Notes: generated by a model from the sequence alone, not told the origin. A stretch of 64,000 bases of DNA from Lachnospiraceae bacterium UBA3762 (GCA_002371615.1 DFGA01000033.1:14184-78183), one strand, 5' to 3'. Positions 29,229 to 58,183 are shown, counted from the first letter of the stretch. Program-made: numbers and translations.

Positions 29229-29232
<4 letters not shown>

Positions 29233-30773
29233 TCCAGAAGATAAAAAATGACGGGCGGTTTGTCCTTATCTTTATAAGCAGCTTTGTATGGGGATTGCTT
29301 GCCCATGGCATGGCAATGTTCAACAAGTATTCATATCATGATGACGTTCCGCATTATAACGGGGTTGGAGTAACATATGAACTGGGAAGGTGGTTTCTGG
29401 CGATAAGCGGGAAGTTTGCTTCCTTTTTCTTTGGTAGTAAAAACTACAGTTTGCCGGCATTTGAGGGTGTAATTACTATTGCCGCGATTGCTGCCATGAC
29501 GTATATTATCTGCCTTAAACTTAGAATTGAGAATAAGGTTCTGATCGTAGCCCTGACCTCGGCTCTTGTGTGCTTTCCGGCAGTCACCAATATATTCGGC
29601 TATGTTTATACCGCACCGTATTATTACATCGGGGCATTAGCCGGAGTAGCCGGTGCATATATTTTCTACAAAAAGAAGTCTTTGCCCGCAGGGGCGGTGT
29701 GCGCAACTCTGATGGCTCTTTCTGTTGGCATATATCAGTCAAACATTCCGATCAACCTTATGGTCCTGCTGTTGTTTATGCTTGATGAAGTCTATTGCTC
29801 CGATATGGACCTGAAGGAGTTTATTACTCTGGCATTTAAGAATATCCTGATCTGTGTGATTTTTATGGCTGAGTACTTTGCTGCTAATGCACTTGCCCTT
29901 AGAATAACCGGGTTGCAGTTGTATGATTATAAGGCTGTCAGCAGTTTTGGACTCACGAATCCGGTCGAGTATCTGGTCAGGATAATTACAGCATACAAAA
30001 GATTCGTCAAGCCGGCAGACTTTATTAATTACAATAATGTATCAGCAAACATGTTTCCGTGGAATACCAAATATGTTCATATGCTGCTTGTGCTGGTCAT
30101 TGCAGTTCTTCTTGTACTGTTGTTAAGATCGGTACATGATGTTAAAAAAATTATCCAGATATGTATAATAACGGTATTAAGCCCGCTCTTTGCTTATTTT
30201 ATCTATGTGATGGTATCGGAAGAGGATGCTCACGGTGGAATGACTTTCGGTGAGTCTTTTATGTTCTTTTTTGCTGCTTATGTTATTGAACGGGCAGGGC
30301 AGAATGACAGGATCAAAAGATTTCTGTCAAAGGCGGCGGTTGCGCTTATGCTTGTTATCGGGGTAATGTTTGCCAGATATGCAAATGTCTGCTATTTAAA
30401 AGCTGATCTGATGCAGACTGAAGCGATCAATTATTATAACAGGCTGATTGCGCAGATACAGTCTGTCGAGGGGTACACAACCGAAACACCGGTTTTGTAT
30501 ATAGGGGGCAGAAACAAGAATGATGACGGCTTTTCGGGGGATTCCAGGTTTGATCCAATCTATCTTCCGCCTTATCAGAATAATTCGATAATTAACGATT
30601 TTTCATGGGAAGAAACTATGGAATTGTGGTGTTCCTTTGCACCACAAATGGCTGAACCGGACGCTATCGAATCATGGGATGTTATTGACGGGATGCCCAA
30701 TTATCCGGACGCTGGGTCTGTCAGGATGGTTGACGGAACAATAGTTGTAAAGTTTGCGGATTCTTCCGATTGA
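29229..30773 (+). CDS. Polytopic membrane protein, GtrII-type glucosyltransferase-like
   Basis: 514 aa. The N-terminus FVLIFISSFVWGLLAHGMAMFNKYSYHDDV resembles the GtrII glucosyltransferase family. Many TM segments. Its start overlaps the upstream stop. Confidence 0.45.
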
Positions 30774-30818
30774 AAACTCTTATTGAAAATAGCGATTTTA
30801 TAAGGTATGATTTAGTGT

Positions 30819-33473: not shown

Positions 33474-33502
33474 TGGCTTTCAATAATAGAAGGGAGCATA
33501 TT

Positions 33503-34216
33503 ATGCAAAAGATCAACTTGTACAGGGAACTTGATGCAAATTCATATCCCGGAAGGGGTATTGTGATAGGCCGTTCTGCTGACGGTAAGTACGCAGTAAC
33601 GGCGTATTTTATTATGGGAAGAAGCACAAACTCGAGAAACAGGGTGTTCGTTGAGGATGGAGACGGTATCAGGACAAAAGCCTTCGATGAGAGCAAGCTT
33701 GAGGATCCTTCGCTGATCATATACGCTCCCGTAAGAGTACTGAACAATACTACGATCGTGACAAACGGTGACCAGACAGATACGATCTATGACGGATTAA
33801 ATGAGGGAAAATCATTCGAGGAGTCTTTACGGAGCCGGGAATTTGAGCCGGATGCTCCCAACTATACACCTCGCATTTCCGGCATCATGGAGATCGAGAA
33901 AGGTAAGTATACATATGCTCTTTCAATCTTAAAGAGTGATAACGGAAACCCCGAACAATGCCTGAGATACACATATTCATATGATAATCCGCTTGCCGGA
34001 GAAGGGCATTTCATTCATACATACATGAAGGACGGCAATCCGCTTCCGTCATTTGAGGGAGAGCCCAAATTCGTTGCTATGGAAGGCGATATAGATACCT
34101 TTACAAAGAAGGTTTGGGAGAGTCTCAATCTTGACAACAAGGTGTCACTATTTGTCAGATATATTGACATTGCGACGGGAGAGGTCAAGACAAGGATTTG
34201 CAATAAGTATTCATAA
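33503..34216 (+). CDS. IMP cyclohydrolase, PurO-like (stand-alone)
   Basis: YPGRGIVIGRSADGKYAVTAYFIMGRSTNSRNRVF resembles archaeal-type PurO. It sits directly upstream of an AICARFT-only PurH. The ATG at 33503 follows AGGGAG. Confidence 0.7.
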   Translation: MQKINLYRELDANSYPGRGIVIGRSADGKYAVTAYFIMGRSTNSRNRVFVEDGDGIRTKAFDESKLEDPSLIIYAPVRVLNNTTIVTNGDQTDTIYDGLNEGKSFEESLRSREFEPDAPNYTPRISGIMEIEKGKYTYALSILKSDNGNPEQCLRYTYSYDNPLAGEGHFIHTYMKDGNPLPSFEGEPKFVAMEGDIDTFTKKVWESLNLDNKVSLFVRYIDIATGEVKTRICNKYS

Positions 34217-34280
34217 GGATACTGGGTCAAAAATGTGTCAAAAAGAACCGTCCCTTTTGACAAGAAAAAAGGAGATTATT

Positions 34281-35459
34281 ATGAAAGAACTGGAGCTCAA
34301 ATACGGCTGTAATCCCAATCAGAAGCCATCAAAAATATACAGAGCCGACGGTGGAGAACTTCCGATAACCGTGCTGAACGGCCGTCCCGGATATATCAAT
34401 CTTCTGGATGCTTTTAACGGCTGGCAGCTTGTGAGGGAGCTTAAGGCTGCAACGGGATATCCTGCCGCAACTTCATTTAAGCATGTAAGCCCTGCGGGAG
34501 CGGCAATCGGTAAGCCTCTTTCGGACACGTTGAAGAAGATATACTTTGTTGATGATCTCGGTGAACTCTCGCCGCTTGCATGCGCATATGCAAGAGCAAG
34601 GGGTGCTGACAGAATGTCTTCATTCGGCGATTTTGTGGCATTATCCGATGTATGCGATGTGCCTACTGCCCGGATACTGAAAAGGGAAGTATCCGACGGT
34701 ATAATAGCTCCGGGATACGAGCCGGAGGCACTTGAAATACTCTCCGCCAAGAAGAAAGGGAACTATGCCGTAATACAGATAGATCCCGAATACAGACCTG
34801 CACCCATCGAGCACAAAGAGGTGTTTGGTATAACTTTCGAGCAGGGAAGGAACGAGATCGAAATAAACGAATCACTGCTTGAAAACATCGTTACCAGGAA
34901 CAGGAACCTGCCGGATGAGGCCAAACATGATCTTCTGATATCGCTTATTACGCTTAAGTATACACAGTCCAATTCGGTCTGCTATGTCAAGGACGGTCAG
35001 GCAATAGGCATTGGCGCGGGACAGCAGTCAAGAGTTCACTGCACACGTCTTGCCGGACAAAAGGCTGACAATTGGCTTCTGCGCCAGAGCCCGAAGGTTA
35101 TGGATCTTCAGTTCGCCGAAGGTATTGGTCGTGCGGATCGTGATAATGCGATAGACAATTATATAGGCGATACATATATGGATGTTATCGGGGATAATGT
35201 ATGGCAGAAGTATTTTGCGGTACGGCCGGAAAGTTATACAGCTGAAGAGAAGAGAAAATGGCTGGATCAGATGAGCGGAGTGTCTCTTGGGTCCGATGCA
35301 TTCTTCCCGTTCCGTGACAACATAGACAGGGGTGCGAAGAGCGGGGTGTCATATATCGTGCAGCCGGGGGGATCGGTCAGAGATGATCTTGTTATTGAGG
35401 CCTGCGATGAGTATGGTATTGTAATGGTTTGTAACGGAGTAAGGCTGTTCCACCACTAA
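34281..35459 (+). CDS. purH: AICAR formyltransferase (PurH C-terminal domain only)
   Basis: LKYGCNPNQ...FKHVSPAGAA...GAGQQSRVHC...SDAFFPFRD...QPGGS. The ATG at 34281 follows AAGGAG. Confidence 0.85.
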   Translation: MKELELKYGCNPNQKPSKIYRADGGELPITVLNGRPGYINLLDAFNGWQLVRELKAATGYPAATSFKHVSPAGAAIGKPLSDTLKKIYFVDDLGELSPLACAYARARGADRMSSFGDFVALSDVCDVPTARILKREVSDGIIAPGYEPEALEILSAKKKGNYAVIQIDPEYRPAPIEHKEVFGITFEQGRNEIEINESLLENIVTRNRNLPDEAKHDLLISLITLKYTQSNSVCYVKDGQAIGIGAGQQSRVHCTRLAGQKADNWLLRQSPKVMDLQFAEGIGRADRDNAIDNYIGDTYMDVIGDNVWQKYFAVRPESYTAEEKRKWLDQMSGVSLGSDAFFPFRDNIDRGAKSGVSYIVQPGGSVRDDLVIEACDEYGIVMVCNGVRLFHH

Positions 35460-35489: not shown

Positions 35490-37298
35490 ATGCGTAAACA
35501 GATTAAGATTCTTTTGATAGTTTTGAACATTATTTTCATATCTATGATCGGATTAATCAGAACCGCTGACAAGTCGGATTCTGTTGTATTCTCTATGGTC
35601 CCGGCATTGATCTGCGTTATTGTTCTTTTGTTCGGAAAATACAAGCTGTTTGAGGACAGGAGTAATATAAAATGGGACATCCTGCTTACCGTGATGTTTA
35701 TACTGATGCTTTCGCTTGAAGATGTATTGAAGACTATGCGTTCCATGGGCGCGGAACCATTCAATACGGTTTTTAAAATAGTGTACTTTCCGGTGTTGAT
35801 AATCGCATTGATCATTGATACAGATTACGCATTATTGGCAGCTGCCCATGCAGGAGCCTTGAGTCAGACCGTGAAGGATAAAACGGATGGAAGGGATTAT
35901 TTGGGGGACAAAAAGTTTCTGGGGATTTACTATCCTGTATGGTTATATATAGGTCTGACTTTTGTGTTTGTAATAGCATATTTTCCGGGACTTATGAACA
36001 GTGATTTTGAGAAACAGTGGATATGGGGTGAGGGACCGACTGTATGGAGTGATTGGCACACGGTAGGTTTTTTGATGTTTGTAAAACTGTGTACAGCGGT
36101 CATACATAAACCGTTTATGATCACAATTGTTCAGGTTTTGATGTATTATCTGACAGCAAATTATGCCGTTAGCGTATTGAACAGGAATTTTCCGGAGCGG
36201 CGCAGGGTCGGATGGATATTCATATGTGTGTATATGTTGTTTGGAATATACAGTTGTATGTATATGTCGGAGGTAAGAAAAGATAACTGCAGCACCCCGA
36301 TGATGCTTGCGTTTGCCGTAGCCCTGCTCGATCACTCCATGAGAAGCGAACACACAAAAAAGGAATATATTAATTTGGGCGTGTTTGCGTTTCTTGCATC
36401 ATTGTTCAGACATTCACTTTGGGAAATAGTATTGATAACACTGATGCTTACCATTGTCTGCGAAGCACTGGATCGCAGTACTGATAAAGATACAAAAAAG
36501 AAGACTGTTAGAAATCTGTGCGTAGTAGTGGCTACAACGATTGGAGCTTTTTTGATAGTGACGGAAGGGATCGGATTTGGGATTCTGAAAGCAGAGAGAA
36601 ATCCGGCCTATGTAAAATACACGATTCCGATGAATCTTGCAGCCTCTCTGGCCTATAGGAGCCGGGAAACCGGTCTGTATATAGAAGACGATATTGTGAA
36701 TAAAATGGAACAGATTATCCCGATGGAAAAATGGGCAGAGTATTATTGCCCGTACGATGCCGACACAACCGACAGGCCATGGCACGAGATCGGAGATAAT
36801 GTATATAAGCTTAATGATCCGCAAGTTGCCCGTGACATTATTGATGTAGATATGTATTATTTAACACACTATCCCAAGCAGTTTGTTCTTTCTTTTTTTG
36901 ATGTTAATTCCATAGTCTGGGAAATGGCTGTTGCATCGGATCTTGTCATGTATAGTCCCGGTCTTGCGACCGAACATTATGAGATTCACCATATGAGAAA
37001 AGGAGAGTTTTTCTATTTTGCCGAGAGTTGCAAGAAATTTATGTCATCGTTTGCTGTAGCAAGAGCTGTTGTATACAGGGGTGGGATCTATCTGTTTTTA
37101 CTGGCAATGATTACAGTCATATTGATAAAAAAGCAAAGGTTCAAAGTGCTTGCCTCAATGATGCCTATATTGCTATACGCCCTTGCACTTATGATTTCAA
37201 TTCCTCAGGAAGGGTCGCATTATATTATGGCGTTCCCTTTGTTTGCTGCATTATTTGGTGTTACATCATTTATGGTAGCGAGTAGGGAATCTCTCTGA
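35490..37298 (+). CDS. Large polytopic membrane protein, first gene of the CotH/VTC/DUF4956 operon
   Basis: 602 aa with many TM segments. Family unassigned. Only 11 nt separate it from the first CotH gene. Confidence 0.5.
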   Translation: MRKQIKILLIVLNIIFISMIGLIRTADKSDSVVFSMVPALICVIVLLFGKYKLFEDRSNIKWDILLTVMFILMLSLEDVLKTMRSMGAEPFNTVFKIVYFPVLIIALIIDTDYALLAAAHAGALSQTVKDKTDGRDYLGDKKFLGIYYPVWLYIGLTFVFVIAYFPGLMNSDFEKQWIWGEGPTVWSDWHTVGFLMFVKLCTAVIHKPFMITIVQVLMYYLTANYAVSVLNRNFPERRRVGWIFICVYMLFGIYSCMYMSEVRKDNCSTPMMLAFAVALLDHSMRSEHTKKEYINLGVFAFLASLFRHSLWEIVLITLMLTIVCEALDRSTDKDTKKKTVRNLCVVVATTIGAFLIVTEGIGFGILKAERNPAYVKYTIPMNLAASLAYRSRETGLYIEDDIVNKMEQIIPMEKWAEYYCPYDADTTDRPWHEIGDNVYKLNDPQVARDIIDVDMYYLTHYPKQFVLSFFDVNSIVWEMAVASDLVMYSPGLATEHYEIHHMRKGEFFYFAESCKKFMSSFAVARAVVYRGGIYLFLLAMITVILIKKQRFKVLASMMPILLYALALMISIPQEGSHYIMAFPLFAALFGVTSFMVASRESL

Positions 37299-37309
37299 GA
37301 ATAATACCA

Positions 37310-39310
37310 ATGAAAGCGCCAACTATAGTCAGAAAATACTTTCACATCATTTATGGTCTGCTCTTTGCCATTATTGTCGGGTTAAGCGGACTGGCAATTG
37401 TCCGGCAACAAAGGTCATCTGTTTTGATCAATGAAGTGTGTACGTCCAACGTTTCATGTTGCGAGGATGCAGACGGCAAATATCCTGATTGGATTGAATT
37501 GTTTAATCCTACAGACGAAACAGTTGACCTGTCGGGATATGTAATCAACAAATCCGCAGATTTACAAAAAGATAAGTTTGTGATTCCGGATGGAACAGTG
37601 ATCGCACCGGGGGCTTTTTATCTCTTCAATCCGGGATTTGTCCTGTCCTCCGAAGGATGCGTGTTGAATTTGGTCGATAAGAGAGGACAGTATAAGGATC
37701 ATGTCAGTGTTCCGGCATTGAAACATGATACAACCTACTCAAGATTCGACGATGGGTCATATGTGTGGGAGGTAAAGGTTCCGACTCCCGGATATGAGAA
37801 TTCTGAAGGAGATACGTTAGGCCGGCTTATTGAAGGGGAGGTATTGGCTTCTGCTCAACCCGGCTTTTATGACAACGGTTTTGATCTGACGCTGAAACCA
37901 TCAAATTGGGGGAGACGGGTGTATTATACTGTAGACGGAAGTGATCCGGTTAAATATGGACTGCTGTACGATAAGCCTGTTCATATATATGACCGGTCTT
38001 CCGAGAAAAACGTATACTCAGTCATACCTGATGTTTCTCTTGATTATATCGAGGGAAATGCTACACCACCGCAGTATACACTTGACAAGTGTATGGTGGT
38101 AAGGGCGGTTTCGAAGGATCTTCTCGGAAGATATACGGATATTAATACATTCACGTATTTTATAGGTTTCGACCAAAAAACTGCGTATGATGATATCAAT
38201 GTTGTGTCAATATCTGCAGATCCTGATGACCTGTTTTCTTATGAGAACGGGATAATGGTATTGGGAAAGAATTATGATGAATATGACAAAGCAGGACAAC
38301 CGGAGGATTATGAAGGAGACAATTCCAATTTTACAGTGCGGGGGAGACGATCGGAAAGAGATATATGCCTGGAGATATATGATAGTGATCGTAACAGGGT
38401 CCTCTCGGGAAATGCCGGGATGAGGATCAAAGGATTGTCATCAAGGTGGGATGTTCAAAAGAGTTTTTCGGTGTTTTTCAGAAAGGCATATGGAAGTAAC
38501 TATAAAGAGAAATTCAGTTTAGATGGCATTGATTTTGACCTGCATTCATTTGCCCTGGACAAGTGCGGACAGGATACTTCGACTAAAATGGTTGATACGA
38601 TCATGTCGGATTGTATGAGCAAAACCGGATGTGCAACTGCAAAACGTGTGCCGTGCTGCCTGTTTTTGAACGGGGAGTATTGGGGCTTTTATTGGATATC
38701 GGAACGTTTTGATGCGTCATTTCTTGCTGACCGGTATGGTGTAAATGCTGATTGTGTTGAGTATATGGATTGGGATGATATAGATAATTGGGATCCGGAG
38801 TTCTTTGACAGGGACTCACTTATAGACTATTATGCATCGAATATTATAGTTGCCCACAGAGGCGACTGGCCACCATTTAATTTCCGGTTCTGGAGAACAG
38901 TAACCGAAGACGAAACGGAATTTGGTGATGGTAAATACAGACCGGTGATTTTTGACATGAATTCAAGTTCAATGATGACCCCGGATTATAATTCTTTTGA
39001 GGTACTTATGAGTGTTTATCCATTCCAAAACGTAGTAGAGGAAGATGAGCGGTTTGCGGCAGATCTTGTCTCAAGAATTGACTCAATGAGTAAGAACGAG
39101 TTTTCTCCGGATAAGGTGTTGCCCATGATCAATTTATTATATGACCGCATGAAAGAACAGATGATCCTCGACAGAATGAGGTATTCAAACTGCAGTTCAA
39201 AAGAAGCGGAAGAATCGTTTGAAGAGAGTGTTGAGATTATCAGGAATTTCTACAGATTCAGGGGAGATTATCTTGAAAAATACAAGGACAGTTTTCTGAA
39301 TGAACAGTAG
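37310..39310 (+). CDS. Membrane-anchored lamin-tail-domain (LTD) + CotH kinase-family protein (paralogue 1)
   Basis: N-terminal basic stretch plus a TM segment. LTD motif LINEVCTSN...YPDWIELFNPTDETVDLSGY. Long CotH-like region (YYTVDGSDP...FLNGEYWGFYW...). Confidence 0.8.
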   Translation: MKAPTIVRKYFHIIYGLLFAIIVGLSGLAIVRQQRSSVLINEVCTSNVSCCEDADGKYPDWIELFNPTDETVDLSGYVINKSADLQKDKFVIPDGTVIAPGAFYLFNPGFVLSSEGCVLNLVDKRGQYKDHVSVPALKHDTTYSRFDDGSYVWEVKVPTPGYENSEGDTLGRLIEGEVLASAQPGFYDNGFDLTLKPSNWGRRVYYTVDGSDPVKYGLLYDKPVHIYDRSSEKNVYSVIPDVSLDYIEGNATPPQYTLDKCMVVRAVSKDLLGRYTDINTFTYFIGFDQKTAYDDINVVSISADPDDLFSYENGIMVLGKNYDEYDKAGQPEDYEGDNSNFTVRGRRSERDICLEIYDSDRNRVLSGNAGMRIKGLSSRWDVQKSFSVFFRKAYGSNYKEKFSLDGIDFDLHSFALDKCGQDTSTKMVDTIMSDCMSKTGCATAKRVPCCLFLNGEYWGFYWISERFDASFLADRYGVNADCVEYMDWDDIDNWDPEFFDRDSLIDYYASNIIVAHRGDWPPFNFRFWRTVTEDETEFGDGKYRPVIFDMNSSSMMTPDYNSFEVLMSVYPFQNVVEEDERFAADLVSRIDSMSKNEFSPDKVLPMINLLYDRMKEQMILDRMRYSNCSSKEAEESFEESVEIIRNFYRFRGDYLEKYKDSFLNEQ

Positions 39311-41330
39311 GATGAGAAGGATTACACTATTTTTCAGAATACATGCATATACTGCTATGATCCTGATCTTTGTCGTAATTACGATAGGGGTGGGTATAGT
39401 TACAGTCAGAAATTCACAGGACAACGTTGTTATAAACGAGGTTTGTACTTCTAATGTCAGATGCTGTGAGGATGAAAACGGAAAATATCCGGACTGGATA
39501 GAAATATATAACCCGACATCACGGGATATTGACCTGTCCGGCTATATTATTAATGATTCGGCTGATTTGAAAAAGGAAAAATACATAGTGCCCCAGGGTA
39601 CAGTTCTGGCTGCGGGGTCATACTATTTGTTTGACCCTCTGTTTTCTTTATCATCTGAAGGGTGTACTGTTAATATACTTGATGACAGGGAACGTTATGT
39701 AGACAGGGTGAAAATACCGAGACTGAAGTACGATACAACATATGGAAGGCTGAAGGATGGTTCGGGTGAATGGGGAGTCAAAATGCCGACTCCCGGTTAT
39801 TCCAACACTGACGGAGAGGATATTATTCCGACTATAAGCGGTAGTGTGAATGCCTCTTACGACTCAGGATTCTACTCCGATGAAATCGAGTTGGCTTTGT
39901 ATTCTTCTGATTACGGAAGGGATATTTATTATACAACTGACGGAAGTGATCCTGTGCATAACGGTACTCTTTACGAAGACCCCATCCGCATATATGATCG
40001 TTCGGAGGAGAAAAATGTCTATTCCGCAATTCCGGAGGTGTCCCTCGATTATATTGAGAATAATGATCCGCTTCCTTCATTTCCGGTTGATAAGTGTACT
40101 GTTGTCAGGGCTGTTGCAAAGGATCACCTGGGAAGGTATACGGATGTTAGTACGCATACATATTTCATAGGTTTCGACGAAAAGAAAGCATATGATAATA
40201 TGGCAGTAGTATCTGTTGCTTCCGACCCGGAAGATCTGTTCTCGGATGGAAACGGAATAATGGTACTCGGGGACAAGTATGCCCGGTATATTGAGGAAGG
40301 GAAGCCAGAGGAGTATGAGGCTGCAAAGGCTAATTTCGCATCAAAAGGGCGGCAGTCTGAAAGAGAGACTTATGTCCAAATATTTGATGAAAAGCATGTC
40401 CCCGTTCTCGCTTCTTCTGCCGGGATAAGAATAAAAGGCAAAACTTCAAGGTGGGACGTTCAAAAGAGTTTTAGCGTTATTTTTAGAAGAGCCTACAGCG
40501 GTTATTCAAAGAATCATTTTACGCTGGACGGATTGGATTTTGATATTCATTCATTTAATTTGGAAAAATGTGGGCAGGACGCAAAAACCAAGATGAAGGA
40601 TGCGATCATGGAAACCTGTATGCGAGATACGGAATGCGTTACCATGAAGATGGTACCATGTTGTATTTTTTTAGACGGAGAATACTTTGGGTTTTACTGG
40701 TTAACAGAACGGTTGGATAACAGTTTTATAGCTTCGGAATACGGAGTTGGTAAGGATAATGTTATAATTACAAGCGTATTTGATATCGAGAATGGCGTTG
40801 AATGGTGGAGTGACAAACTGGCGGACAGAAAGAGCATGATAGATTATTATGCGGGGAATATAATTGTATCGCATGAAAATGACTGGCCCGGAGCAAATTA
40901 CAAGGTATGGCGCACAATAGAGGATGATGGAACAAAATATGGTAATGCAAAATGGCGACCTATGATTTTTGATATGAATTCATCGTCGCTGAAGACTCCT
41001 GACTTTGATTCGTTTGAATATCTTATGGGATTCTATCCGTTTATGGATATGTCCTTGAGTGAAGATAATATGTTCAAAGAAGAACTTGTTGAGCGGATAG
41101 ATGAGATGGTTCAAAATGAATTTTCTCAGGACAGGGTTTTATCGCTTACAGACCAGTTTCACGACCGGATAAAAGATCAGATGATCCTTGACAGGATGAG
41201 GTATTCGGACTGTAGTGCGGAGGAAGCAGAGGAATACTTTGAAGAAGGGGTATCCTCTATAAGAAAGTTTTTCCGGGACAGGTACGACTATTTGAAGATA
41301 TATGAGGGTAAGTATTTAGATGGAAAATGA
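39300..41330 (+). CDS. Membrane-anchored LTD + CotH kinase-family protein (paralogue 2)
   Basis: Collinear with 37310..39310 (VINEVCTSNVRCCEDENGKYPDWIEIYNPTSRDIDLSGY...FLDGEYFGFYW). Overlaps the upstream gene by 11 nt. Confidence 0.8.
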   Translation: MNSRMRRITLFFRIHAYTAMILIFVVITIGVGIVTVRNSQDNVVINEVCTSNVRCCEDENGKYPDWIEIYNPTSRDIDLSGYIINDSADLKKEKYIVPQGTVLAAGSYYLFDPLFSLSSEGCTVNILDDRERYVDRVKIPRLKYDTTYGRLKDGSGEWGVKMPTPGYSNTDGEDIIPTISGSVNASYDSGFYSDEIELALYSSDYGRDIYYTTDGSDPVHNGTLYEDPIRIYDRSEEKNVYSAIPEVSLDYIENNDPLPSFPVDKCTVVRAVAKDHLGRYTDVSTHTYFIGFDEKKAYDNMAVVSVASDPEDLFSDGNGIMVLGDKYARYIEEGKPEEYEAAKANFASKGRQSERETYVQIFDEKHVPVLASSAGIRIKGKTSRWDVQKSFSVIFRRAYSGYSKNHFTLDGLDFDIHSFNLEKCGQDAKTKMKDAIMETCMRDTECVTMKMVPCCIFLDGEYFGFYWLTERLDNSFIASEYGVGKDNVIITSVFDIENGVEWWSDKLADRKSMIDYYAGNIIVSHENDWPGANYKVWRTIEDDGTKYGNAKWRPMIFDMNSSSLKTPDFDSFEYLMGFYPFMDMSLSEDNMFKEELVERIDEMVQNEFSQDRVLSLTDQFHDRIKDQMILDRMRYSDCSAEEAEEYFEEGVSSIRKFFRDRYDYLKIYEGKYLDGK

Positions 41331-42024
41331 CAACGTTTTTCGACATGAATTAAAATACCTTATCAACAGGCGTGAGATGGATTGCTGCCTGAGCAGATTG
41401 TCTGAGTTCGCCGAAGCGGATATTCATGCTAAAAATGGCACTTATGCTGTTAGAAGCCTGTATTTTGATGATCAGTACAGATCCGCATATAATGATAAGG
41501 AAAGTGGAGTAAGATCGAGGGCTAAGTACCGGATTAGGGTATATGACCTGGATCAGGGATATATAACACTTGAAAAAAAGATAAAAGAAGGGATGTACGT
41601 CAGGAAAGAATCAGCTTATTTATCAAAGAGTGAGTATGATATGATTATGTCGGATAATACGGATTTCCTTCTTGCAAGAAGCGAACGGGTGGCAAATGAT
41701 TTTGCAATAGAATGCAGGGTTAATGGGTTACATCCTGAGGTGATAGTAGATTACGACAGAATACCGTTTGTTTATGCCTACGGAAATGTACGTATTACAT
41801 TTGACATGAATATCAGGTCTTCATTTGATAAACTTGATGTGTTTGCGGTAAGTACTCCTGCTTACAACGTTCTTGGGGAGGATGAACTTGTGATGGAGGT
41901 CAAATACACGGAGTATCTGCCGGATATTATCAGAGTTGTGTTGCCCGATTCCGGTTGCAGGATGGCAGTGTCAAAATACGTTTTATGCGATGATGTAAAA
42001 CTTTTATTTAGGGAGGATATGTAA
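41320..42024 (+). CDS. VTC-domain protein (triphosphate-tunnel / polyphosphate-polymerase-like catalytic domain), copy 1
   Basis: 234 aa with no TM segment. FRHELKYLI at the N-terminus, then VRSLYFDD...AKYRIRVY...LEKKIK...MEVKY. This basic/acidic beta-strand pattern is typical of bacterial VTC-domain proteins. Confidence 0.75.
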   Translation: MENDNVFRHELKYLINRREMDCCLSRLSEFAEADIHAKNGTYAVRSLYFDDQYRSAYNDKESGVRSRAKYRIRVYDLDQGYITLEKKIKEGMYVRKESAYLSKSEYDMIMSDNTDFLLARSERVANDFAIECRVNGLHPEVIVDYDRIPFVYAYGNVRITFDMNIRSSFDKLDVFAVSTPAYNVLGEDELVMEVKYTEYLPDIIRVVLPDSGCRMAVSKYVLCDDVKLLFREDM

Positions 42025-42025
42025 A

Positions 42026-42706
42026 ATGAGTGTAAAGGATATGATCAAAAAATCGGTCTTGGAGTCAGCGGTTTACAACCAGTCAATGGCATCCGGAACG
42101 TATGTCACTATAGTAGTTGATATGATTGTTGCACTTATTATAGGGTATATAATTTACAAAATATACAAAAGGTTTTTTGCCGGGGTAGTGTATAGCAGAT
42201 TTTTTGCGGTAACACTTATTGGAATGACTGTACTCACATGTATGGTAACCCTTGCGATTTCCACTAATATCGTTATTTCACTGGGTATGGTCGGTGCACT
42301 TTCTATCGTAAGATATCGAACTGCAATAAAGGAGCCGCTTGATATTATGTATCTATTTTGGGCAATAACCGAGGGAATAACTATAGGCGCCAGTATGTAC
42401 ATCCTTGCTTCTATAGGAATGCTCGTAATGCTTATTGTAGTAATCGGGATGAGTAAGATGAAAGAGAACAGAGGAACATTTGTTATGATTGTGCATCTGA
42501 ATGATGATGCCGCCAAAGAAAAAATCCTTGATGTATTAAAATCATATGTATACTCCGTGAAGAACAGCATTCTGCGTGAAGATACAACTGAGCTGACCAT
42601 TCAGATTGATATGAATAAAGATGACGGTATAGCCGAAAAGGTTCGTGCTATATCAGGTGTTAATGATGTAGCGCTGATCCAATATAACGGGGAATACCAT
42701 GGCTAG
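42026..42706 (+). CDS. DUF4956-family membrane protein, copy 1
   Basis: About 4 TM segments, the hallmark SLGMVGALSIVRYRTAIKEPLD, and a soluble C-terminal domain of about 85 aa. Confidence 0.75.
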   Translation: MSVKDMIKKSVLESAVYNQSMASGTYVTIVVDMIVALIIGYIIYKIYKRFFAGVVYSRFFAVTLIGMTVLTCMVTLAISTNIVISLGMVGALSIVRYRTAIKEPLDIMYLFWAITEGITIGASMYILASIGMLVMLIVVIGMSKMKENRGTFVMIVHLNDDAAKEKILDVLKSYVYSVKNSILREDTTELTIQIDMNKDDGIAEKVRAISGVNDVALIQYNGEYHG

Positions 42707-44828
42707 ATCTGCTGATACAAGACGTACGGCATTAATCGCTTTTTTATTTTTGCTCTTGGCAGTAACGTTTTCGGGAACTATTCTAAGTAACAAAAATGGG
42801 AATGATCTCTATATTTCTGAGGTTTGCCCGCATAATGAAAATGTGATCCACGATTCGGTAGGATTTTACCAGGATTATATAGTTTTGACCAACCCGTCCG
42901 ATCATATGATAGATCTTGAAGGATACGGTTTGTCGGATAAAAGGTCGGAATTAAGGGAGTTTGTATTTTCTGGTTCGGTAATACAACCGCTGGGGACTCT
43001 TGTTGTATGGACAGACTATCCTTCGCAGTTTGGCGACGGCTATTATGATGAAGACGCAATTTACACGGATTTTAAAATAAGTGATCATGAGTACCTGTAT
43101 TTGACAGATCCTTACGGAAGAGTTATTGATTCCCTGCGAATCCCCAATATGTCATCAAATGAAGTGTTGCTAAGAGACAAGCCCAATGCCAGAGGATCTG
43201 TCGGAACGTCAGGCTTTATCAAAAAGTCCACACCGGTTGTTTCAAAGGATATTGAACCACCGAGGATGTCGGCAGACTCGGGTTTTTATGAACATCCGTT
43301 TGAATTATCAATGTCAGGAAAGTATGATGTTTATTATACTGACGATGGAAGCAATCCTTATTTGTATGGGAAACCTTATGAGGGACAGATACAGATAATC
43401 GATAGAAGTAACCTGCCTGATATATACAGTGTTTTAGGTCCTGTATCGGCAGCATACGAACAATTTTATCCTGATAAGCCTGTTGCAAAATCAACGATCA
43501 TTCGTGCTGTCTCCCAAAGAGATGATGGAACATTTTCCGAGGAGTCGGTTGCAACTTTTTTCGTGGGTAAGGAAGTAAGAGACATTTGTTCGGACAGCTA
43601 TATCGTATCAATGGTTTCCGACCCGGATGGTTTGTTTTCTGATTATGATGGGATATACATGAGTGGGATCACCTGGGAGCTAAACTCCGAAAAGGTTGCA
43701 TCTATGGGTGCTGATCCTGTATACGCTCCCGCCAATTACAATATGCGGGGTAAAGGATGGAGAAGGGGAGCAAAGCTTATGCTTTTTGACCCGGACGGAA
43801 ATTGTCTGTATGATGAAGATGATATAGTAAGTATACGCGGTAAATCCTCCCGCGCGGTTGTACAGAAGGGGTTTAACATAAGGCCCCAAACGGATGATGG
43901 AACGGTGTTTAACGGGTTAATAGACGGTGCCGGTGATATATTAATGTTGCGCACGGGAAGTGCAGAAGATGTTTTTTTGACGAATTTCAGGGATGCGTTG
44001 AATGCAAGAATAGCGGATAACCTTAAGGTCGGTGCGCAAAGGTCGCTATGCTGCCAGATGTTTTTGAATGGGGAATACTGGGGATGTTACAGCCTTCAGG
44101 AACATCTGGATACAAGCTTTATCGAAGCAAGATATAATGTTTCTGCCGAAAATGTGAATCTCATCAAGATTGATGGCGAACCGGAGGTTCTTTCCGAACT
44201 GACAAGTGATCTGAATATGTATCAGGATGTGGAAAGATTTCTGGCAGAACATGATCTTTCGGTCGATGCCGATTACAAACAGTTTTGTGATATGGTGGAT
44301 ATAGACAGTGCTATTGATTATTACTGCGCCGAGATCTTTTTCGCAAATGATGACGCGTATCTGGGGAATAAGGCTCTTTGGAGAGCCCGGAATGTTGGAC
44401 CGAATCCCTATGAGGATGGTAAATGGAGGTTTCTTTTGTTTGACCTGGATAATACGGACGGATATGCTCCTAATGCCGGTGCAGATATAGATTCGTTCAT
44501 AGACGGAAGTTATGCGGGATATAATGCAACAGATGATTTGTTTTTTTCCGGTTTGATAAAAAACTCTGATTTCAGACAACGGTTCAGGGAGCGATTTGAA
44601 GAACTATTGGCAAATGATTTTTCCTATGAAACCATAGAAAAGATTATAGATGAGTTTGAAAACAGGTATGAAGAGCCGATGGTATCATCTGTCAGACGAT
44701 TTCATGATGCTGAGTTTACAGAAAAGCAGTATCACGAAAATGTCCGGGTTGTCAGGGAATTCTTCAGGGAAAGAGGCAGATATATAGGCGGGTATCTTGA
44801 GCTGCATATGGGAGAGTCAGGAAGATGA
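42699..44828 (+). CDS. Membrane-anchored LTD + CotH kinase-family protein (paralogue 3, divergent)
   Basis: N-terminal TM segment, LYISEVCPHN...YIVLTNPSDHMIDLEGY (LTD), YYTDDGSNP, FLNGEYWGCY. Overlaps the upstream gene by 8 nt. Confidence 0.75.
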   Translation: MARSADTRRTALIAFLFLLLAVTFSGTILSNKNGNDLYISEVCPHNENVIHDSVGFYQDYIVLTNPSDHMIDLEGYGLSDKRSELREFVFSGSVIQPLGTLVVWTDYPSQFGDGYYDEDAIYTDFKISDHEYLYLTDPYGRVIDSLRIPNMSSNEVLLRDKPNARGSVGTSGFIKKSTPVVSKDIEPPRMSADSGFYEHPFELSMSGKYDVYYTDDGSNPYLYGKPYEGQIQIIDRSNLPDIYSVLGPVSAAYEQFYPDKPVAKSTIIRAVSQRDDGTFSEESVATFFVGKEVRDICSDSYIVSMVSDPDGLFSDYDGIYMSGITWELNSEKVASMGADPVYAPANYNMRGKGWRRGAKLMLFDPDGNCLYDEDDIVSIRGKSSRAVVQKGFNIRPQTDDGTVFNGLIDGAGDILMLRTGSAEDVFLTNFRDALNARIADNLKVGAQRSLCCQMFLNGEYWGCYSLQEHLDTSFIEARYNVSAENVNLIKIDGEPEVLSELTSDLNMYQDVERFLAEHDLSVDADYKQFCDMVDIDSAIDYYCAEIFFANDDAYLGNKALWRARNVGPNPYEDGKWRFLLFDLDNTDGYAPNAGADIDSFIDGSYAGYNATDDLFFSGLIKNSDFRQRFRERFEELLANDFSYETIEKIIDEFENRYEEPMVSSVRRFHDAEFTEKQYHENVRVVREFFRERGRYIGGYLELHMGESGR

Positions 44829-45523
44829 GGCATGAAGAAAAGTATATCTGCTCGGAGAGACAGTTGGAAATCATAGAACACCGCCTTAAAACGATTCTGC
44901 CATTTGATGCAAATCAGGAAGGCAGCGACTACGGGATACGCAGTTTGTATTTCGATACGGTGGATGACAGGATGTACCATGAGAGCCTGTATGGGGTTGA
45001 CAGACGCAGTAAGTATCGTATACGCTTTTACAATATGTCGGAAGAATTATTCAGAATGGAGCGAAAAGATGCTGTAGGAAGGATGAAGCAAAAGCATTCG
45101 TCGGTTATTGATAAGAATACGGTCCACTCCCTGGTTGAAGGAAGGCCGATTCATGACAGTGAGGATGAAGTTGTTCATGAGGTCCATCTCCTGCAGAAGA
45201 CGGAAGGGCTTCATCCTGTAGTTATAGTTGATTACAGAAGATGCGCATTTACCTGTCCTACAGGTAATGTGAGAATAACGATAGATCGTGATATTTCATG
45301 TACCCATTGTGTATATGATTTTATGGAAGACCATCCGATACTGTTTCCAGTCATGCCATACAGAAAACATATTCTTGAGGTTAAGTATGACGGAATATTG
45401 CCGGGATATATAGTGTCAGCTGTCGATGTAGGGAATTTGGAGCAGGTTTCGGTGTCAAAATATGTTTTTTCAAGAAATGTGATTGAAGGAAACGGAAGAA
45501 GGGAATACGGATATGAGTTTTAA
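44825..45523 (+). CDS. VTC-domain protein, copy 2
   Basis: MRHEEKYIC...IRSLYFDT...SKYRIRFY...LEVKY is collinear with 41320..42024. Confidence 0.75.
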   Translation: MRHEEKYICSERQLEIIEHRLKTILPFDANQEGSDYGIRSLYFDTVDDRMYHESLYGVDRRSKYRIRFYNMSEELFRMERKDAVGRMKQKHSSVIDKNTVHSLVEGRPIHDSEDEVVHEVHLLQKTEGLHPVVIVDYRRCAFTCPTGNVRITIDRDISCTHCVYDFMEDHPILFPVMPYRKHILEVKYDGILPGYIVSAVDVGNLEQVSVSKYVFSRNVIEGNGRREYGYEF

Positions 45524-46184
45524 AGATATGATCAGAAATTCGGTATTGAGTAACTTCAGTAGCGACATTACACTACAGAGGATAGCAATTGTTCTGCTTT
45601 TGTCACTTGTTCTGGGGATATATGTGTTTATAGTTTACAGGATGACTGTCAATAATGAGTTTTATTCAAAAGATTATAACAGAACCCTTGTATTGATGGC
45701 GGTTGTGACGGCAGGAATCGTACTGGCGGTACAATCCAATCTGGTAATTTCTCTCGGTATGGTCGGAGCACTTTCAATCGTAAGATTCCGAACGGCGATA
45801 AAGAGTTCGATAGATCTTTTCTTCCTGTTTTGGGCTATCAGCATAGGAATTATATGCGGAGCAGGATTATACTTTCTTGCAGCTGTATTATGCGTTGTTG
45901 TAACGGCCGGATTGTATATAACGGGTCGGATGGCCAGTCCGGTGTCACTTGGCCTGCTGATTGTTAATTGCAGTACATCCGAAACAGCAGACAGAGTAAT
46001 AGAGAGGGTAAAACCCGTTACAAGATTTCTCAGAATGAAGAATAAGACTGTATCCAAAGATAATGTGGAACTTATCCTTGAGTACAAAGCGAATGATGAA
46101 AAGGCTCTGGAAAGTGTTCTTAAAGAGATTGACGATGTTACCAGATATGCTTTTATGAATTATGATAGGGAGACAAGAATCTAG
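45513..46184 (+). CDS. DUF4956-family membrane protein, copy 2
   Basis: SLGMVGALSIVRFRTAIKSSID is collinear with 42026..42706. The ATG at 45513 overlaps the VTC stop. Confidence 0.75.
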   Translation: MSFKDMIRNSVLSNFSSDITLQRIAIVLLLSLVLGIYVFIVYRMTVNNEFYSKDYNRTLVLMAVVTAGIVLAVQSNLVISLGMVGALSIVRFRTAIKSSIDLFFLFWAISIGIICGAGLYFLAAVLCVVVTAGLYITGRMASPVSLGLLIVNCSTSETADRVIERVKPVTRFLRMKNKTVSKDNVELILEYKANDEKALESVLKEIDDVTRYAFMNYDRETRI

Positions 46185-46194
46185 GCTTTTGTTC

Positions 46195-46223
46195 TTGACA
46201 AGAATTGGCGTATCTTATATAAT
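46195..46223 (+). promoter_or_regulatory. Consensus sigma-A promoter for the tRNA-Val/tRNA-Met pair
   Basis: TTGACA (46195-46200), exact 17-nt spacer, TATAAT (46218-46223). It lies about 25 nt upstream of the tRNA 5' end. Confidence 0.65.
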
Positions 46224-46247: not shown

Positions 46248-46320
46248 GGGATCTTAGCTCAGCTGGGAGAGCATCTGCCTTACAAGCAGAGGGTCATAGG
46301 TTCGAGCCCTATAGGTCCCA
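46248..46320 (+). tRNA. tRNA-Val (anticodon TAC)
   Basis: I folded the cloverleaf by hand. Acceptor GGGATCT/AGGTCCC, anticodon loop CTTACAA, T-arm ATAGGTTCGAGCCCTAT. CCA is not encoded. Confidence 0.9.
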
Positions 46321-46349
46321 TATTGTCACGATCGAAGATCGCGACCTTT

Positions 46350-46423
46350 GGCGAGGTGGCTCAACTGGCTAGAGCGTCCGGTTCATACCCGGGAGGTTAA
46401 GAGTTCAAGTCTCTTCCTCGCTA
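46350..46423 (+). tRNA. tRNA-Met (anticodon CAT), elongator-like
   Basis: GGCGAGGTGGCTCAACTGGCTAGAGCGTCCGGTTCATACCCGGGAGGTTAAGAGTTCAAGTCTCTTCCTCGCTA. It lacks the initiator 1:72 mismatch. I cannot exclude the lysidine-type Ile2 identity. Confidence 0.8.
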
Positions 46424-46444
46424 TTAAAAAGGAAATATGTAAAT

Positions 46445-48095: not shown

Positions 48096-49913
48096 ATGAG
48101 CAGATTGAATTTAACAGATGAGAACATCAATAAAAAACTTCGTATAGCAGCTCTTGTATTGATCATTATTCTGATTTCGTGGCCGTTTTTGTTTATGGAC
48201 CTTGCCAAGGGACACGATATGCTGTTCCACCTTCAGCGTATCGAGGGAATACGTCAGGATGTGTCATTGAGACATTTTCCTGTCCGGATGCAATCGGGAT
48301 GGATGAGAGGATACGGATACCCCGTTTCAATACTGTACGGAGATGTATTTTTGTATATCGGGGCTGTGTTCAGAAAACTCGGTTTTCCTGTTATGGTTTC
48401 ATTCAGACTGTTTATGGTATGTGTGAATACTGCGGCTGTTCTCATATCTTATTTTTCGTTTAAAGTGTTTAATAAAGGCTGGGCACCCGTAATAGCTACA
48501 GCAGCATATACTACATCCTCATATCGCCTTGTTGACGAGTATGTACGGTCGGCGATAGGCGAAACCCTTGCTATAGTATTCTTTCCGGCGGTTGCCGCAT
48601 GTATATACCTTATCCTTACAACTAAAGACTATCACAGAAGGCGTAAATATACAGTGGTGCTTTCACTCTCATTCCTGGCCGTTATCTGCTCTCACACATT
48701 AACGACAAGTATGATGCTTGTTGTATTGGTTCTGTTCGGACCCGTTAGTCTTGTGCTGTTCGGAATTAAAGGAGAACGTATCAGACAGATGGGAAATGTT
48801 GTAATGGCCGGAATACTCACGATCCTTATGTCGGCTTTTTTTGTCATTCCTTTTCTGGATACATACCTTAATGCGGGGATAGCATTTGCTCTTAAGCGAA
48901 AAAACAGTATTCAGGGCGAAGGGCCTGGAATTACCGATCTGTTTGAGTTTGTATGCAATCCGTTCGGGGGAACGAATGGCGGCTCAATTCAACAGACTCC
49001 GGGGCCTGTGCTTATATGCTTTCTTATTATTGCGATAGTTGCATGTATAGTTTCCGTAATAAGAAAGACCGATTTTCCTAACAGGAACCGTATTGTATTT
49101 GAGACGGTAGCGAGCCTGATACTGCTGCTTATGTCTTCCGCTTATTTTCCGTGGAATTTTATAGAAGATAATGTCCCTGTACTTGGCGGAATTCTTACGG
49201 CAATAGAATTTCCCATGCGTTACCTTGCGTTTGCCATAGTATTTATGGCATTGCTTACGGGTGATATGATCAGGCTGATAGGTGACAGGCTTGGTTCGGG
49301 CAGTTCCGGGATAACTTCAGGATGTGCGGTTAAGGCAGTATGCATCGTGATAATGTGCGCCCTGTTTATATTTAATGTTGCCCAGATATGCTTCCACAGC
49401 CGTACTTACGAAAAAAGAGCCGATTATAAAAACGTCGAAGACCTTGGTGAGTGGAGATATTATGCGATGGACTTCCGGCTCGAGAACACGACGGTTGATG
49501 ATCTGCCGACCGGCCTTGTTCATGAGGGTATGCTCAGCATGGAGGTGCTCTCAAGGGACAGCAATGAGTTCCTGATCGCGTGTGTTACAGGACCTGACTA
49601 TGGTTGGATACAGCTTCCGGTGTTTAATTACCCGTATTATCATGCGGCGGATCTTGAAAACCCCAAAATGGAATTTGAGATACATGATGGTGGAAACAGA
49701 ACTGTCGGTGTATTACTTCCTGCAAATTATGAAGGGATACTCCATGTGTACTGGCAGGAGCCGGTATTCTGGAGAGTTTCCGAGGTGGTATCATATATAA
49801 CATTTGCACTGTGCATTCTGTATCTGTTAGCCATATCCGATAAAGATAATGGCATTAAAAGGATTTATAACAGGTTAAGTAAAAATGGGACTGATAAAGA
49901 GTATCAAAAATGA
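48096..49913 (+). CDS. Large polytopic membrane protein, GT-C-like; paralogue of 13490..15676
   Basis: GHDMLFHLQRIEGIRQDVSLRHFPVRMQSGWMRGYGYPVSILYGDVFLYIGAVF aligns by eye with the 13490 protein. Confidence 0.6.
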   Translation: MSRLNLTDENINKKLRIAALVLIIILISWPFLFMDLAKGHDMLFHLQRIEGIRQDVSLRHFPVRMQSGWMRGYGYPVSILYGDVFLYIGAVFRKLGFPVMVSFRLFMVCVNTAAVLISYFSFKVFNKGWAPVIATAAYTTSSYRLVDEYVRSAIGETLAIVFFPAVAACIYLILTTKDYHRRRKYTVVLSLSFLAVICSHTLTTSMMLVVLVLFGPVSLVLFGIKGERIRQMGNVVMAGILTILMSAFFVIPFLDTYLNAGIAFALKRKNSIQGEGPGITDLFEFVCNPFGGTNGGSIQQTPGPVLICFLIIAIVACIVSVIRKTDFPNRNRIVFETVASLILLLMSSAYFPWNFIEDNVPVLGGILTAIEFPMRYLAFAIVFMALLTGDMIRLIGDRLGSGSSGITSGCAVKAVCIVIMCALFIFNVAQICFHSRTYEKRADYKNVEDLGEWRYYAMDFRLENTTVDDLPTGLVHEGMLSMEVLSRDSNEFLIACVTGPDYGWIQLPVFNYPYYHAADLENPKMEFEIHDGGNRTVGVLLPANYEGILHVYWQEPVFWRVSEVVSYITFALCILYLLAISDKDNGIKRIYNRLSKNGTDKEYQK

Positions 49914-58162: not shown

Positions 58163-58183
58163 TTGTTATAATTGAATACCAAA

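Follow-up and report, generated by a model that had tools for sequence, protein, structure and literature searches.

The 64,000-nucleotide stretch of DNA analysed here (hereafter the window; Lachnospiraceae bacterium UBA3762, GCA_002371615.1 DFGA01000033.1:14184-78183) carries at positions 35490-46184 eight intact, tightly packed open reading frames (ORFs) on the + strand, which encode three LTD-CotH proteins, two VTC proteins, two DUF4956 membrane proteins and one orphan polytopic protein. We find that the CotH-VTC-DUF4956 triad of this block is a conserved gene unit in many bacterial lineages and that its two copies are, as judged from distance trees, ancient paralogs lying side by side. The best model for the unit, which we favour tentatively, is a polyphosphate synthase-translocase that would feed a phosphotransferase located outside the cell. 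The combination of genes has already been published and the locus is one of hundreds; it adds an unusual double-module, Pel-unlinked arrangement to an already-noted gene module, for which the biochemical interpretation seems plausible. New in our analysis are the observations that both VTC proteins keep every triphosphate-binding residue of yeast Vtc4, including the equivalent of K458, that the CotH proteins, with a predicted position outside the membrane, retain the catalytic Asp residues, that DUF4956 carries an invariant basic motif and that most of the related loci are not linked to Pel. The features of the block and its boundary are as follows.

35490..37298 (+): MP602, orphan polytopic membrane protein, 602 amino acids, about 12 hydrophobic helices
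37310..39310 (+): CotH1, LTD, CHB_HEX_C/Fn3_assoc and CotH domains, N-terminal anchor
39300..41330 (+): CotH2, same domain architecture as its paralog CotH1, N-terminal anchor
41320..42024 (+): VTC1, 234 amino acids, VTC domain only, module 1
42026..42706 (+): DUF4956-1, membrane protein of 226 amino acids, partner of VTC1, starting 1 nucleotide (nt) past the VTC1 stop codon
42699..44828 (+): CotH3, LTD and full-length CotH domain, module 2
44825..45523 (+): VTC2, 232 amino acids, VTC domain only, module 2
45513..46184 (+): DUF4956-2, membrane partner of VTC2, 223 amino acids, 11-nt overlap with VTC2
46195..46223 (+): tRNA promoter, a boundary marker outside the system, 12/12 match to the sigma-70 consensus (TTGACA-17 nt-TATAAT)
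46248-46424 (+): tRNA pair, tRNA-Val(tac) at 46248 and tRNA-Met(cat) at 46349 (ARAGORN and Rfam)

A preliminary description of this DNA had placed eight co-directional genes at these positions, and this is confirmed by the ORF calls and the measured junctions. Of the seven junctions in gene order, the first and fourth are gaps (11 and 1 nt, respectively), and at the others the genes overlap, by 11 nt at the second, third and seventh, by 8 nt at the fifth and by 4 nt at the sixth. The peptides quoted in it (FRHELKYLI...VRSLYFDD and MRHEEKYIC...IRSLYFDT) are present in the window proteins, and all of its family calls hold in profile hidden Markov model (HMM) searches, with Pfam matches above the cut-offs. 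The last gene has an ATG start at 45513, and an upstream TTG at 45483 is also open. As had been described, the block ends just before a consensus tRNA promoter; this perfect promoter and the tRNA-Val/tRNA-Met pair are wedged between two blocks of surface-glycan genes. Nearly all genes of the window lie on the + strand and co-directionality alone is therefore weak evidence here; since the genes upstream also follow at short gaps, position 35490 is not a defined 5' edge of a transcription unit, and a transcript may start further upstream, possibly at the distance of the GtrII and GGDEF/EAL genes. Scanning the inside of the block for promoters and terminators gave counts indistinguishable from those of shuffles (55 promoter-like sites against 41 expected, 10 terminator-like sites against 9.2), with the tRNA promoter as the sole site standing out, and the operon structure is thus not settled by the sequence. 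An Rfam scan gave no regulatory RNA near the block.

Conservation of the triad was analysed at related loci. Scanning with a VTC alignment for a single short motif, one genome per species, yielded at least 598 confirmed loci. The best 80 of these, a sample that leans toward relatives of VTC2, were searched with HMMs derived from the window proteins. DUF4956 adjoins VTC in 79 of the 80 loci, the exception being located at a contig end, and the VTC-DUF4956 pairs are co-directional in 81/81 cases (median gap 15 nt). The CotH kinase domain is present in 66 loci (co-directional in 66 of 67 cases, median gap 13 nt), and most of the 14 loci without it are cut by contig ends. VTC and DUF4956 always occur 1:1 while CotH is present in 0-3 copies, with two or more copies in 9 loci; two full modules are found in only 2/80. 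The sample spans Lachnospiraceae, Oscillospiraceae, Christensenellales, Paenibacillus, Trichococcus, Bulleidia and two Bacteroidota bins. A contiguous triad is also annotated in Pseudobutyrivibrio xylanivorans pNP95 and in a Planococcus plasmid, and the window-built HMMs localize a contiguous VTC-DUF4956-CotH triad on the chromosome of the actinomycete Nonomuraea gerenzanensis (NZ_LT559118.1, L090 7665-11030), in a stretch for which the PLSDB gene table, itself incomplete, lists no annotation. The adjacency, the presence of CotH in most loci and the co-directional pairing show that the three families co-occur beyond chance, and the earlier suggestion that they form one machine is strongly backed by this near-obligate synteny across many lineages. 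Anti-phage defence was also considered and rejected, PADLOC giving 0 matches for all eight proteins.

Distance trees were built from the window VTC and DUF4956 proteins and their homologs from the 80 related loci. VTC1 and VTC2 are 32% identical, as are DUF4956-1 and DUF4956-2, and in the trees each window protein pairs one-to-one with a different gene of a buffalo-rumen Lachnospiraceae locus (L001), where the ortholog of VTC1 lies at 15683-16378 (-) and that of DUF4956-1 at 14962-15642; CotH3 is 52% identical to the protein encoded at 7859-9994 of the same locus. The common ancestor of the window copies spans 43/84 VTC leaves and 80/80 DUF4956 leaves, and the divergence between the two window copies is about that between copies from different bacterial families. 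The two modules are therefore best read from these sequences as ancient paralogs, each with its own ortholog in L001. The preliminary description had called the triad tandemly duplicated. Two old, intact and conserved copies plus an extra CotH are indeed present, but the trees, the identity of about 32% and the separate L001 orthologs rule out a recent or local tandem duplication. Both modules are convergent in L001, and in another related locus (L085) one module lies elsewhere in the same neighbourhood; since the arrangement differs in these loci, rearrangement has occurred. CotH1 and CotH2 are 57% identical to each other and CotH3 is 27-29% identical to either. As L001 has a single gene at the position of CotH1 and CotH2, this pair is the only younger, lineage-specific duplication.

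The same gene order is found in four independent assemblies, one of them with a contig of 346,879 nt, and the closest named relatives are metagenome-assembled genomes of Lachnospiraceae. The block is therefore not an assembly artefact, as had been argued earlier. Taking chance arrangement, artefact and decay of a duplicate together, we regard their probability as negligible: in addition to the identical order in the assemblies, the ORFs are all intact with invariant catalytic residues, both modules have L001 orthologs and synteny extends across the 80 loci.

VTC1 and VTC2 match PF09359 with E-values of 1.6e-32 (113.4 bits) and 6.3e-37 (127.8 bits; cut-off 23). They are 232-234 residues in length, with no transmembrane segment, no SPX domain and no further Pfam domain. 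A single-sequence search with VTC2 reached yeast Vtc4 in the PDB (3g3q) at 3e-5 and a VTC profile (A1) reached it at 2e-10; yeast Vtc4 and Vtc2 are the only PDB sequence matches of the window VTC. In yeast Vtc4, triphosphate is coordinated by K200, R264, R266, K281, R361, K458, S457 and Y359 and Mn2+ is bound by E426, and K458 separates active Vtc4 from inactive Vtc2 and Vtc3 (10.1101/2023.01.27.525886). When the equivalents were assigned by residue count through the profile alignment to 3g3q, all of these residues were found conserved in 84/84 bacterial VTC proteins, VTC1 and VTC2 included, and likewise the equivalents of R196, K294, R373 and K428. In VTC2 the catalytic equivalents are R2, K6, R65, R67, K81, Y137, R139, E185, S211 and K212, each kept in 84/84. 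VTC1 and VTC2 are thus Vtc4-type triphosphate-tunnel proteins by sequence and candidate polyphosphate polymerases.

The triphosphate-tunnel (TTM/CYTH) superfamily also includes triphosphatases and cyclases. The bacterial VTC could accordingly be a non-polymerase enzyme (a triphosphatase or nucleotide cyclase, for example, or an enzyme making nucleoside polyphosphates), whose small product or signal would be passed or sensed by DUF4956, controlling or feeding CotH. An invariant glutamate (E4) at the position of the ExExK glutamate, which is lost in Vtc4, would fit such an enzyme, as would a kinase fold built for nucleotide binding. We nevertheless consider this rather improbable, since the matches are specific for the VTC family (1e-32 to 1e-37), the residues required for polyphosphate synthesis in Vtc4 are all kept, with K458 among them, and the PDB gives no sequence match other than Vtc4 and Vtc2.

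Clustered at 50% identity, the VTC family numbers 13,047 representatives, of which 1,336 match at E <= 1e-30; its top matches are almost all stand-alone proteins of about 230 residues. Four double-length matches were considered as possible fusions and rejected; their extra part is an Arg/Lys/Pro-rich, disordered N-terminal extension lacking any domain, and they thus offer no Rosetta-stone evidence. Arg/Lys/Pro-rich, apparently disordered N-terminal extensions of 140-270 residues without a Pfam domain are seen in the VTC homologs P0357, P0401, P0387 and P0388, and polybasic tails of this kind are a curious feature in putative polyphosphate enzymes.

DUF4956-1 and DUF4956-2 match PF16316 at E-values of 2.3e-10 and 2.8e-10 (40.9 and 40.6 bits; cut-off 30.6). 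Alignment of 80 sequences reveals an invariant core, S80-x-GMVGALSIVRFRTAIK in DUF4956-2 numbering and ending at K97, which contains an R-x-R-x-x-x-K motif formed by R91, R93 and K97, each 100% conserved. The AlphaFold2 (AF2) model of DUF4956-2 has five helices followed by a C-terminal beta-alpha-beta-beta-alpha-beta domain. A fold search with this model returned nothing at E <= 1e-3, leaving the membrane part without a solved counterpart; the fold neighbours are limited to the generic ferredoxin-like C-terminal domain and are all weak, consisting of ACT domains and the MgtC C-terminal domain 2lqj, which matches over the C-terminal domain only (E = 1.1e-2). Assuming the topology of MgtC, with the C-terminus in the cytoplasm, the model would place the basic motif on the inner side of the membrane, and by analogy this motif recalls the basic rings of the yeast polyphosphate channel. 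Membership in the MgtC/SapB family failed at the curated thresholds, with 11-14.9 bits against 31.4 for PF02308 and 22.6 bits against 214 for NF007431.

This weak resemblance to MgtC bears on a different reading, in which the genes form a cytoplasmic module for phosphate homeostasis or regulation. VTC would make or hydrolyse intracellular tri- or polyphosphate, DUF4956 would be an MgtC-like membrane regulator with a ligand-binding ACT-like domain and no conduit, CotH would be an independent kinase or binding protein outside the cell, and the genes would be co-regulated since all of them affect surface-polymer production. Such a module is suggested by the weak MgtC similarity itself (an NCBIfam MgtC/SapB match of DUF4956-1 at 6.9e-5 and a match of DUF4956-2 to PF02308 at 0.035, below the cut-off), the presence of 2lqj among the fold matches, the name YhiD given to DUF4956 members in some sources, the few loci without CotH and a GGDEF/EAL protein in the conserved neighbourhood. 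A role in phosphate metabolism has moreover been suggested by the authors who studied the Streptococcus intermedius set (PMC12345266). However, it leaves unexplained both the invariant basic motif and the translational coupling, seen in more than 80% of the loci, between a secreted protein of kinase fold and an enzyme of the cytoplasm; it offers no phosphoryl donor for a CotH outside the cell, and the MgtC matches all fall below curated cut-offs. We judge the regulatory reading unlikely, while giving it serious weight.

The third component is CotH. The three window CotH proteins match PF08757 with 87.8, 88.7 and 148.6 bits (cut-off 23.8). CotH1 contains LTD (1e-11) and CotH (1.3e-24) domains, with CHB_HEX_C_1 and Fn3_assoc above their cut-offs; CotH2 contains LTD (5e-13), Fn3_assoc (6e-12) and CotH (6.8e-25), with CHB_HEX_C_1 above its cut-off; CotH3 contains a CotH domain covering profile positions 1-322 (4e-43) and LTD (2e-12). 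A profile of 20 CotH proteins (A2) reached Bacillus cereus CotH (5jd9) at E = 1e-36, and such a profile was needed to reach it, as a single-sequence PDB search with CotH3 gave only levansucrase matches (E ~2e-3), which were discarded as spurious. In Bacillus subtilis CotH, mutation of D228 or D251 abolishes catalytic activity (PMC7821199). The equivalents of both residues are kept in CotH1, CotH2 and CotH3, the loop Asp being assigned by motif and not by strict column because MAFFT sets that of CotH1 and CotH2 1-2 columns off. The catalytic motifs read HRGDW..N/FDMN in CotH1, HENDW..N/FDMN in CotH2 and NDDA..N/FDLD in CotH3, and the DFG-like metal-binding Asp is invariant in A2 (D582 of CotH3). 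Each CotH has one N-terminal hydrophobic helix, with the N-terminal flank richer in basic residues, followed by extracellular-type domains. The CotH proteins are accordingly predicted to be membrane-anchored and extracytoplasmic, with the catalytic domain on the outer side of the membrane and the catalytic Asp residues kept.

CotH was first defined in spore coats and many Lachnospiraceae form spores, which would allow a function in sporulation analogous to that of the Bacillus CotH that phosphorylates coat proteins. This is very improbable. The triad occurs in non-spore-formers, namely streptococci and bifidobacteria, according to the literature, and we find it in Trichococcus, Bulleidia, Bacteroidota bins and Nonomuraea. 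Moreover, the window CotH proteins are anchored in the membrane and carry extracellular-type domains, whereas the coat kinase, about 360 residues long, consists of the CotH domain alone, and their neighbours are vegetative surface-glycan genes.

From the families, topology, conserved catalytic residues and synteny described above, we infer the chemistry of the model that we prefer: polyphosphate synthesis by VTC, export by DUF4956, and the donor and the acceptor used by CotH. The soluble, cytoplasmic VTC would polymerise phosphate from ATP at the membrane. DUF4956, present 1:1 with VTC, would anchor it and carry the polyanion made by VTC across the membrane, with the basic motif possibly acting like the basic rings in the channel of yeast and the ACT-like domain possibly regulating VTC. 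The pair would thus parallel the VTC synthase-translocase of yeast while having an unrelated membrane part. The bacterial exterior has no ATP pool, and the outward-facing LTD-CotH may use the exported polymer on a cell-surface polymer, either as phosphoryl donor or as the group that is attached; the acceptor would most likely be a glycan of the wall or of an exopolysaccharide. Since the enzyme is cytoplasmic, the kinase-fold protein is outside and a membrane protein is encoded between them, VTC and CotH could be coupled only via DUF4956. As the copy number (0-3 per locus) and the accessory domains of CotH vary, it may be the variable part that confers specificity, and this would explain two modules and three CotH proteins in a genome rich in surface-glycan genes. 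In S. intermedius, deletion of SIR_1592 or SIR_1594 leads to lower Pel levels and weaker Pel-dependent aggregation (PMC12345266). We count these genetics of the DUF4956 and CotH homologs in favour of the synthase-translocase model.

Several points weigh against this model. The AF2 model of DUF4956-2 is of moderate confidence (pLDDT 72.4, pTM 0.51), DUF4956 resembles the yeast VTC channel in neither sequence nor fold, and its only weak relative, MgtC, is a regulator and not a transporter. The invariant E4 stands where Vtc4 has Thr and is nearer to the ExExK of CYTH triphosphatases, so the chemistry of bacterial VTC could differ. Among the top 150 VTC representatives there is no VTC-DUF4956 or VTC-CotH fusion, and in three loci (L033, L046 and L014) the CotH kinase domain is missing although 10 kb is covered in full on either side, L014 having an LTD-only ORF. 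The nearest neighbours are heterogeneous, with 134 Pfam families among 121 proteins, and the link with glycan genes is a tendency, not a rule. We know of no kinase-fold enzyme that uses polyphosphate as donor, and we found no published biochemical study of any bacterial VTC, DUF4956 or secreted CotH.

Should the synthase-translocase model be true, it would provide a new bacterial polyphosphate synthase, a function for DUF4956 and an explanation of how secreted CotH kinases are energised. It would also imply a new phosphate modification of the Gram-positive surface, bearing on biofilm formation, aggregation and host interaction. In its widest form, which we hold to be possible but doubtful, the module would represent a third bacterial route to polyphosphate that is independent of PPK1 and PPK2, couples synthesis to export in convergence with eukaryotic VTC, and yields a polymer that powers an extracytoplasmic CotH for the phosphorylation or polyphosphorylation of wall glycans or exopolysaccharides; CotH would then be the first bacterial enzyme of kinase fold for which activity in the ATP-free cell exterior is explained. 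The module is widespread, being common in gut and rumen Clostridia and present in pathogen-associated loci (NELoc-2 of Clostridium perfringens and streptococcal Pel). Two ancient paralogous modules with three CotH proteins in one operon-like block make the window a clean natural experiment, and relatives of the module are present in the culturable P. xylanivorans MA3014, as genes FXF36_RS15445-15455 of pNP95, and S. intermedius.

The first gene of the block, MP602, stands apart from the triad. The preliminary description had counted a polytopic membrane protein as part of the block; it is present at 35490 but is a lineage-specific companion outside the conserved core. No Pfam or NCBIfam family matches it, its own family comprises 17 clusters among 5.8 billion proteins, and a homolog is found in only 1/80 VTC loci and absent from the other 79. 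Its homologs do occur near LTD-CotH genes in two relatives (L085 and L086). One of these neighbourhoods, L086 10001-16800, contains an MP602 homolog, two Acyl_transf_3 genes and LTD-CotH with no VTC or DUF4956 nearby, and on this basis the link of MP602 may be with LTD-CotH and not with the polymerase pair. A Foldseek search with its AF2 model (pLDDT 75.6, pTM 0.81) gave no significant match (best E 0.16). The matches of high probability are all GT-C enzymes (Pmt4, Pmt1/2, ArnT, AftA and DPY19); the non-significant match to Pmt4 has a probability of 1.00 and a root-mean-square deviation of 6.3 Å over 281 columns, and the TM-scores to GT-C enzymes are about 0.2-0.3. MP602 is possibly GT-C-like, for which these model comparisons are suggestive at best.

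Five more large proteins of the window (551-728 residues) have no Pfam family. They are encoded at 1623-3608, 4986-6641, 13490-15676, 24412-26403 and 48096-49913 (+), the last with a faint match to YfhO (E = 1.6), and are interspersed with PMT_2, GtrII and GT2-GtrA genes. These proteins may represent undescribed GT-C-type families fed by polyprenyl-phosphate sugars.

The window as a whole is a surface-glycan region. The setting proposed for the block in the preliminary description is borne out by the protein families present, which include GT2, GT8, GT10, GT2-GtrA, GtrII and PMT_2 proteins as well as a GDP-mannose/fucose pathway, a DegT aminotransferase and several large proteins without Pfam domains. 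Neither Pel families nor DUF4832 occur among the scanned proteins of the window. In a Pfam scan of the 121 nearest neighbours at related loci, GT2 is the commonest (16/121), followed by metallophosphoesterases of the purple-acid-phosphatase-like type (5/121); PelG accounts for only 2/121. Recurrent clusters within +/-10 kb include a Wzt ABC ATPase, a Bac_transf priming transferase and an LCP ligase, and the six largest sequence clusters place 23/80 loci in a glycan context, a count which underestimates diverse glycosyltransferases. The module is a free-standing unit that tends to occur in loci for glycopolymers of various biosynthetic classes and is not Pel-specific.

Metallophosphoesterases resembling purple acid phosphatases and having a lipoprotein-type signal lie near the triad in 8/80 loci, for example at L010 6787-8139 (-), and the triad locus of P. 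xylanivorans pNP95 has a 'phosphodiester glycosidase'. These recurrent phosphoesterases are consistent with phosphate-ester chemistry outside the cell.

Directly upstream of the block, a run at 29229-35459 (+) encodes GtrII, a GGDEF/EAL protein (30819-33473), a PurO-type IMP cyclohydrolase and an AICARFT-only PurH, and then continues with MP602. The run is conserved in L085 (233-9984), where the CotH-VTC-DUF4956 triad directly follows the GGDEF/EAL gene. By analogy this hints at a cyclic di-GMP link like that of bifidobacterial Pel loci, in which a GGDEF/EAL gene replaces DUF4832 (10.1101/768473). As a general feature the association was rejected, GGDEF/EAL being rare among the 80 loci, with occurrences at L032, L043 and L046.

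The window further contains a GDP-fucose route at 10121-13515 (+), consisting of a mannose-1-phosphate guanylyltransferase, a GDP-mannose 4,6-dehydratase and an epimerase/reductase, and a GT10 alpha-1,3-fucosyltransferase with a FucT_N domain at 55443-56414 (+), which together suggest a fucosylated surface glycan. A tRNA-Thr(ggt) is located at 56468-56540. At 58173-58366 (+) there is a full-length cobalamin riboswitch (Rfam RF00174, 111.5 bits), directly upstream of a gene for a CbiK-type cobalt chelatase (58556-60202).

Comparison with known systems places the block closest to gene sets described earlier. The preliminary description had called the system uncharacterised and knew of no experimentally defined function for the combination. 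The combination has, however, been recognised before: it is described for Gram-positive Pel loci, has been the subject of partial genetics in S. intermedius and is visible in NELoc-2 of C. perfringens. In streptococci and clostridia, cotH, a poly-phosphate polymerase gene, DUF4956 and DUF4832 form an accessory set beside pelDEA(DA)FG (Whitfield et al. 2020, 10.1101/768473 = PMC7112168). In S. intermedius, SIR_1594 is a predicted secreted CotH-FN3 protein, SIR_1593 a protein with a polyphosphate polymerase domain and SIR_1592 a protein with an MgtC-like transmembrane part and an ACT domain (PMC12345266). The window shares the contiguous cotH, polymerase and DUF4956 genes, in two copies, and the predicted topology of a secreted CotH, a soluble polymerase-domain protein and an MgtC-like/ACT-like membrane protein. 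In contrast to the Pel set, its scanned proteins include neither pel gene products nor DUF4832, its CotH accessory domains are an N-terminal LTD and CHB_HEX_C/Fn3_assoc and not a C-terminal FN3, and it has two ancient paralogous modules, an extra CotH and an orphan polytopic protein in front. The S. intermedius authors reported that the synteny was not found outside the Pel locus (PMC12345266); because PelG makes up so few of the nearest neighbours in our survey, the module is far more general than that.

NELoc-2 consists of VTC, a membrane protein of 226 residues, a resolvase, VTC, a membrane protein of 222 residues and CotH (CP4_0460-0468; PMC2879425). Like the window it has a doubled pair of VTC and a 222-226-residue membrane protein beside CotH in a surface-associated locus; it differs in having one CotH, a resolvase between the pairs and a context of a chitin-synthase-like glycosyltransferase and HEAT repeats. 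The Planococcus plasmid is annotated with the same VTC-DUF4956-CotH-hypothetical-HEAT-glycosyltransferase layout as NELoc-2. From this layout and from their size, we infer that the NELoc-2 membrane proteins, annotated 'tubulin/FtsZ', are DUF4956.

With the yeast VTC complex (PDB 3g3q, 8i6v, 7ytj) the window proteins share the Pfam catalytic family, the catalytic residues and the tie to a membrane component. They differ from it in that the catalytic domain is a separate, soluble protein without SPX and without the C-terminal three-helix VTC1-type transmembrane domain, in that the membrane partner is the unrelated DUF4956 (PF16316), and in the kinase-fold partner outside the cell, which has no yeast counterpart. 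DUF4956 resembles MgtC/SapB/YhiD proteins in being small and polytopic with a C-terminal ferredoxin-like/ACT-like domain, and in its weak sequence and fold matches, but all of these matches lie below curated thresholds; to our knowledge, neither the invariant GMVGALSIVRFRTAIK core nor an obligate pairing with VTC is a feature of MgtC. Finally, the window CotH proteins have the kinase fold, the catalytic Asp/Asn loop and the metal-binding Asp in common with the Bacillus CotH kinase (PDB 5jd9/5jda), and are distinguished from it by their length of about 670-710 residues, their predicted anchored and extracytoplasmic position, their LTD and glycan-associated domains and their non-spore context.

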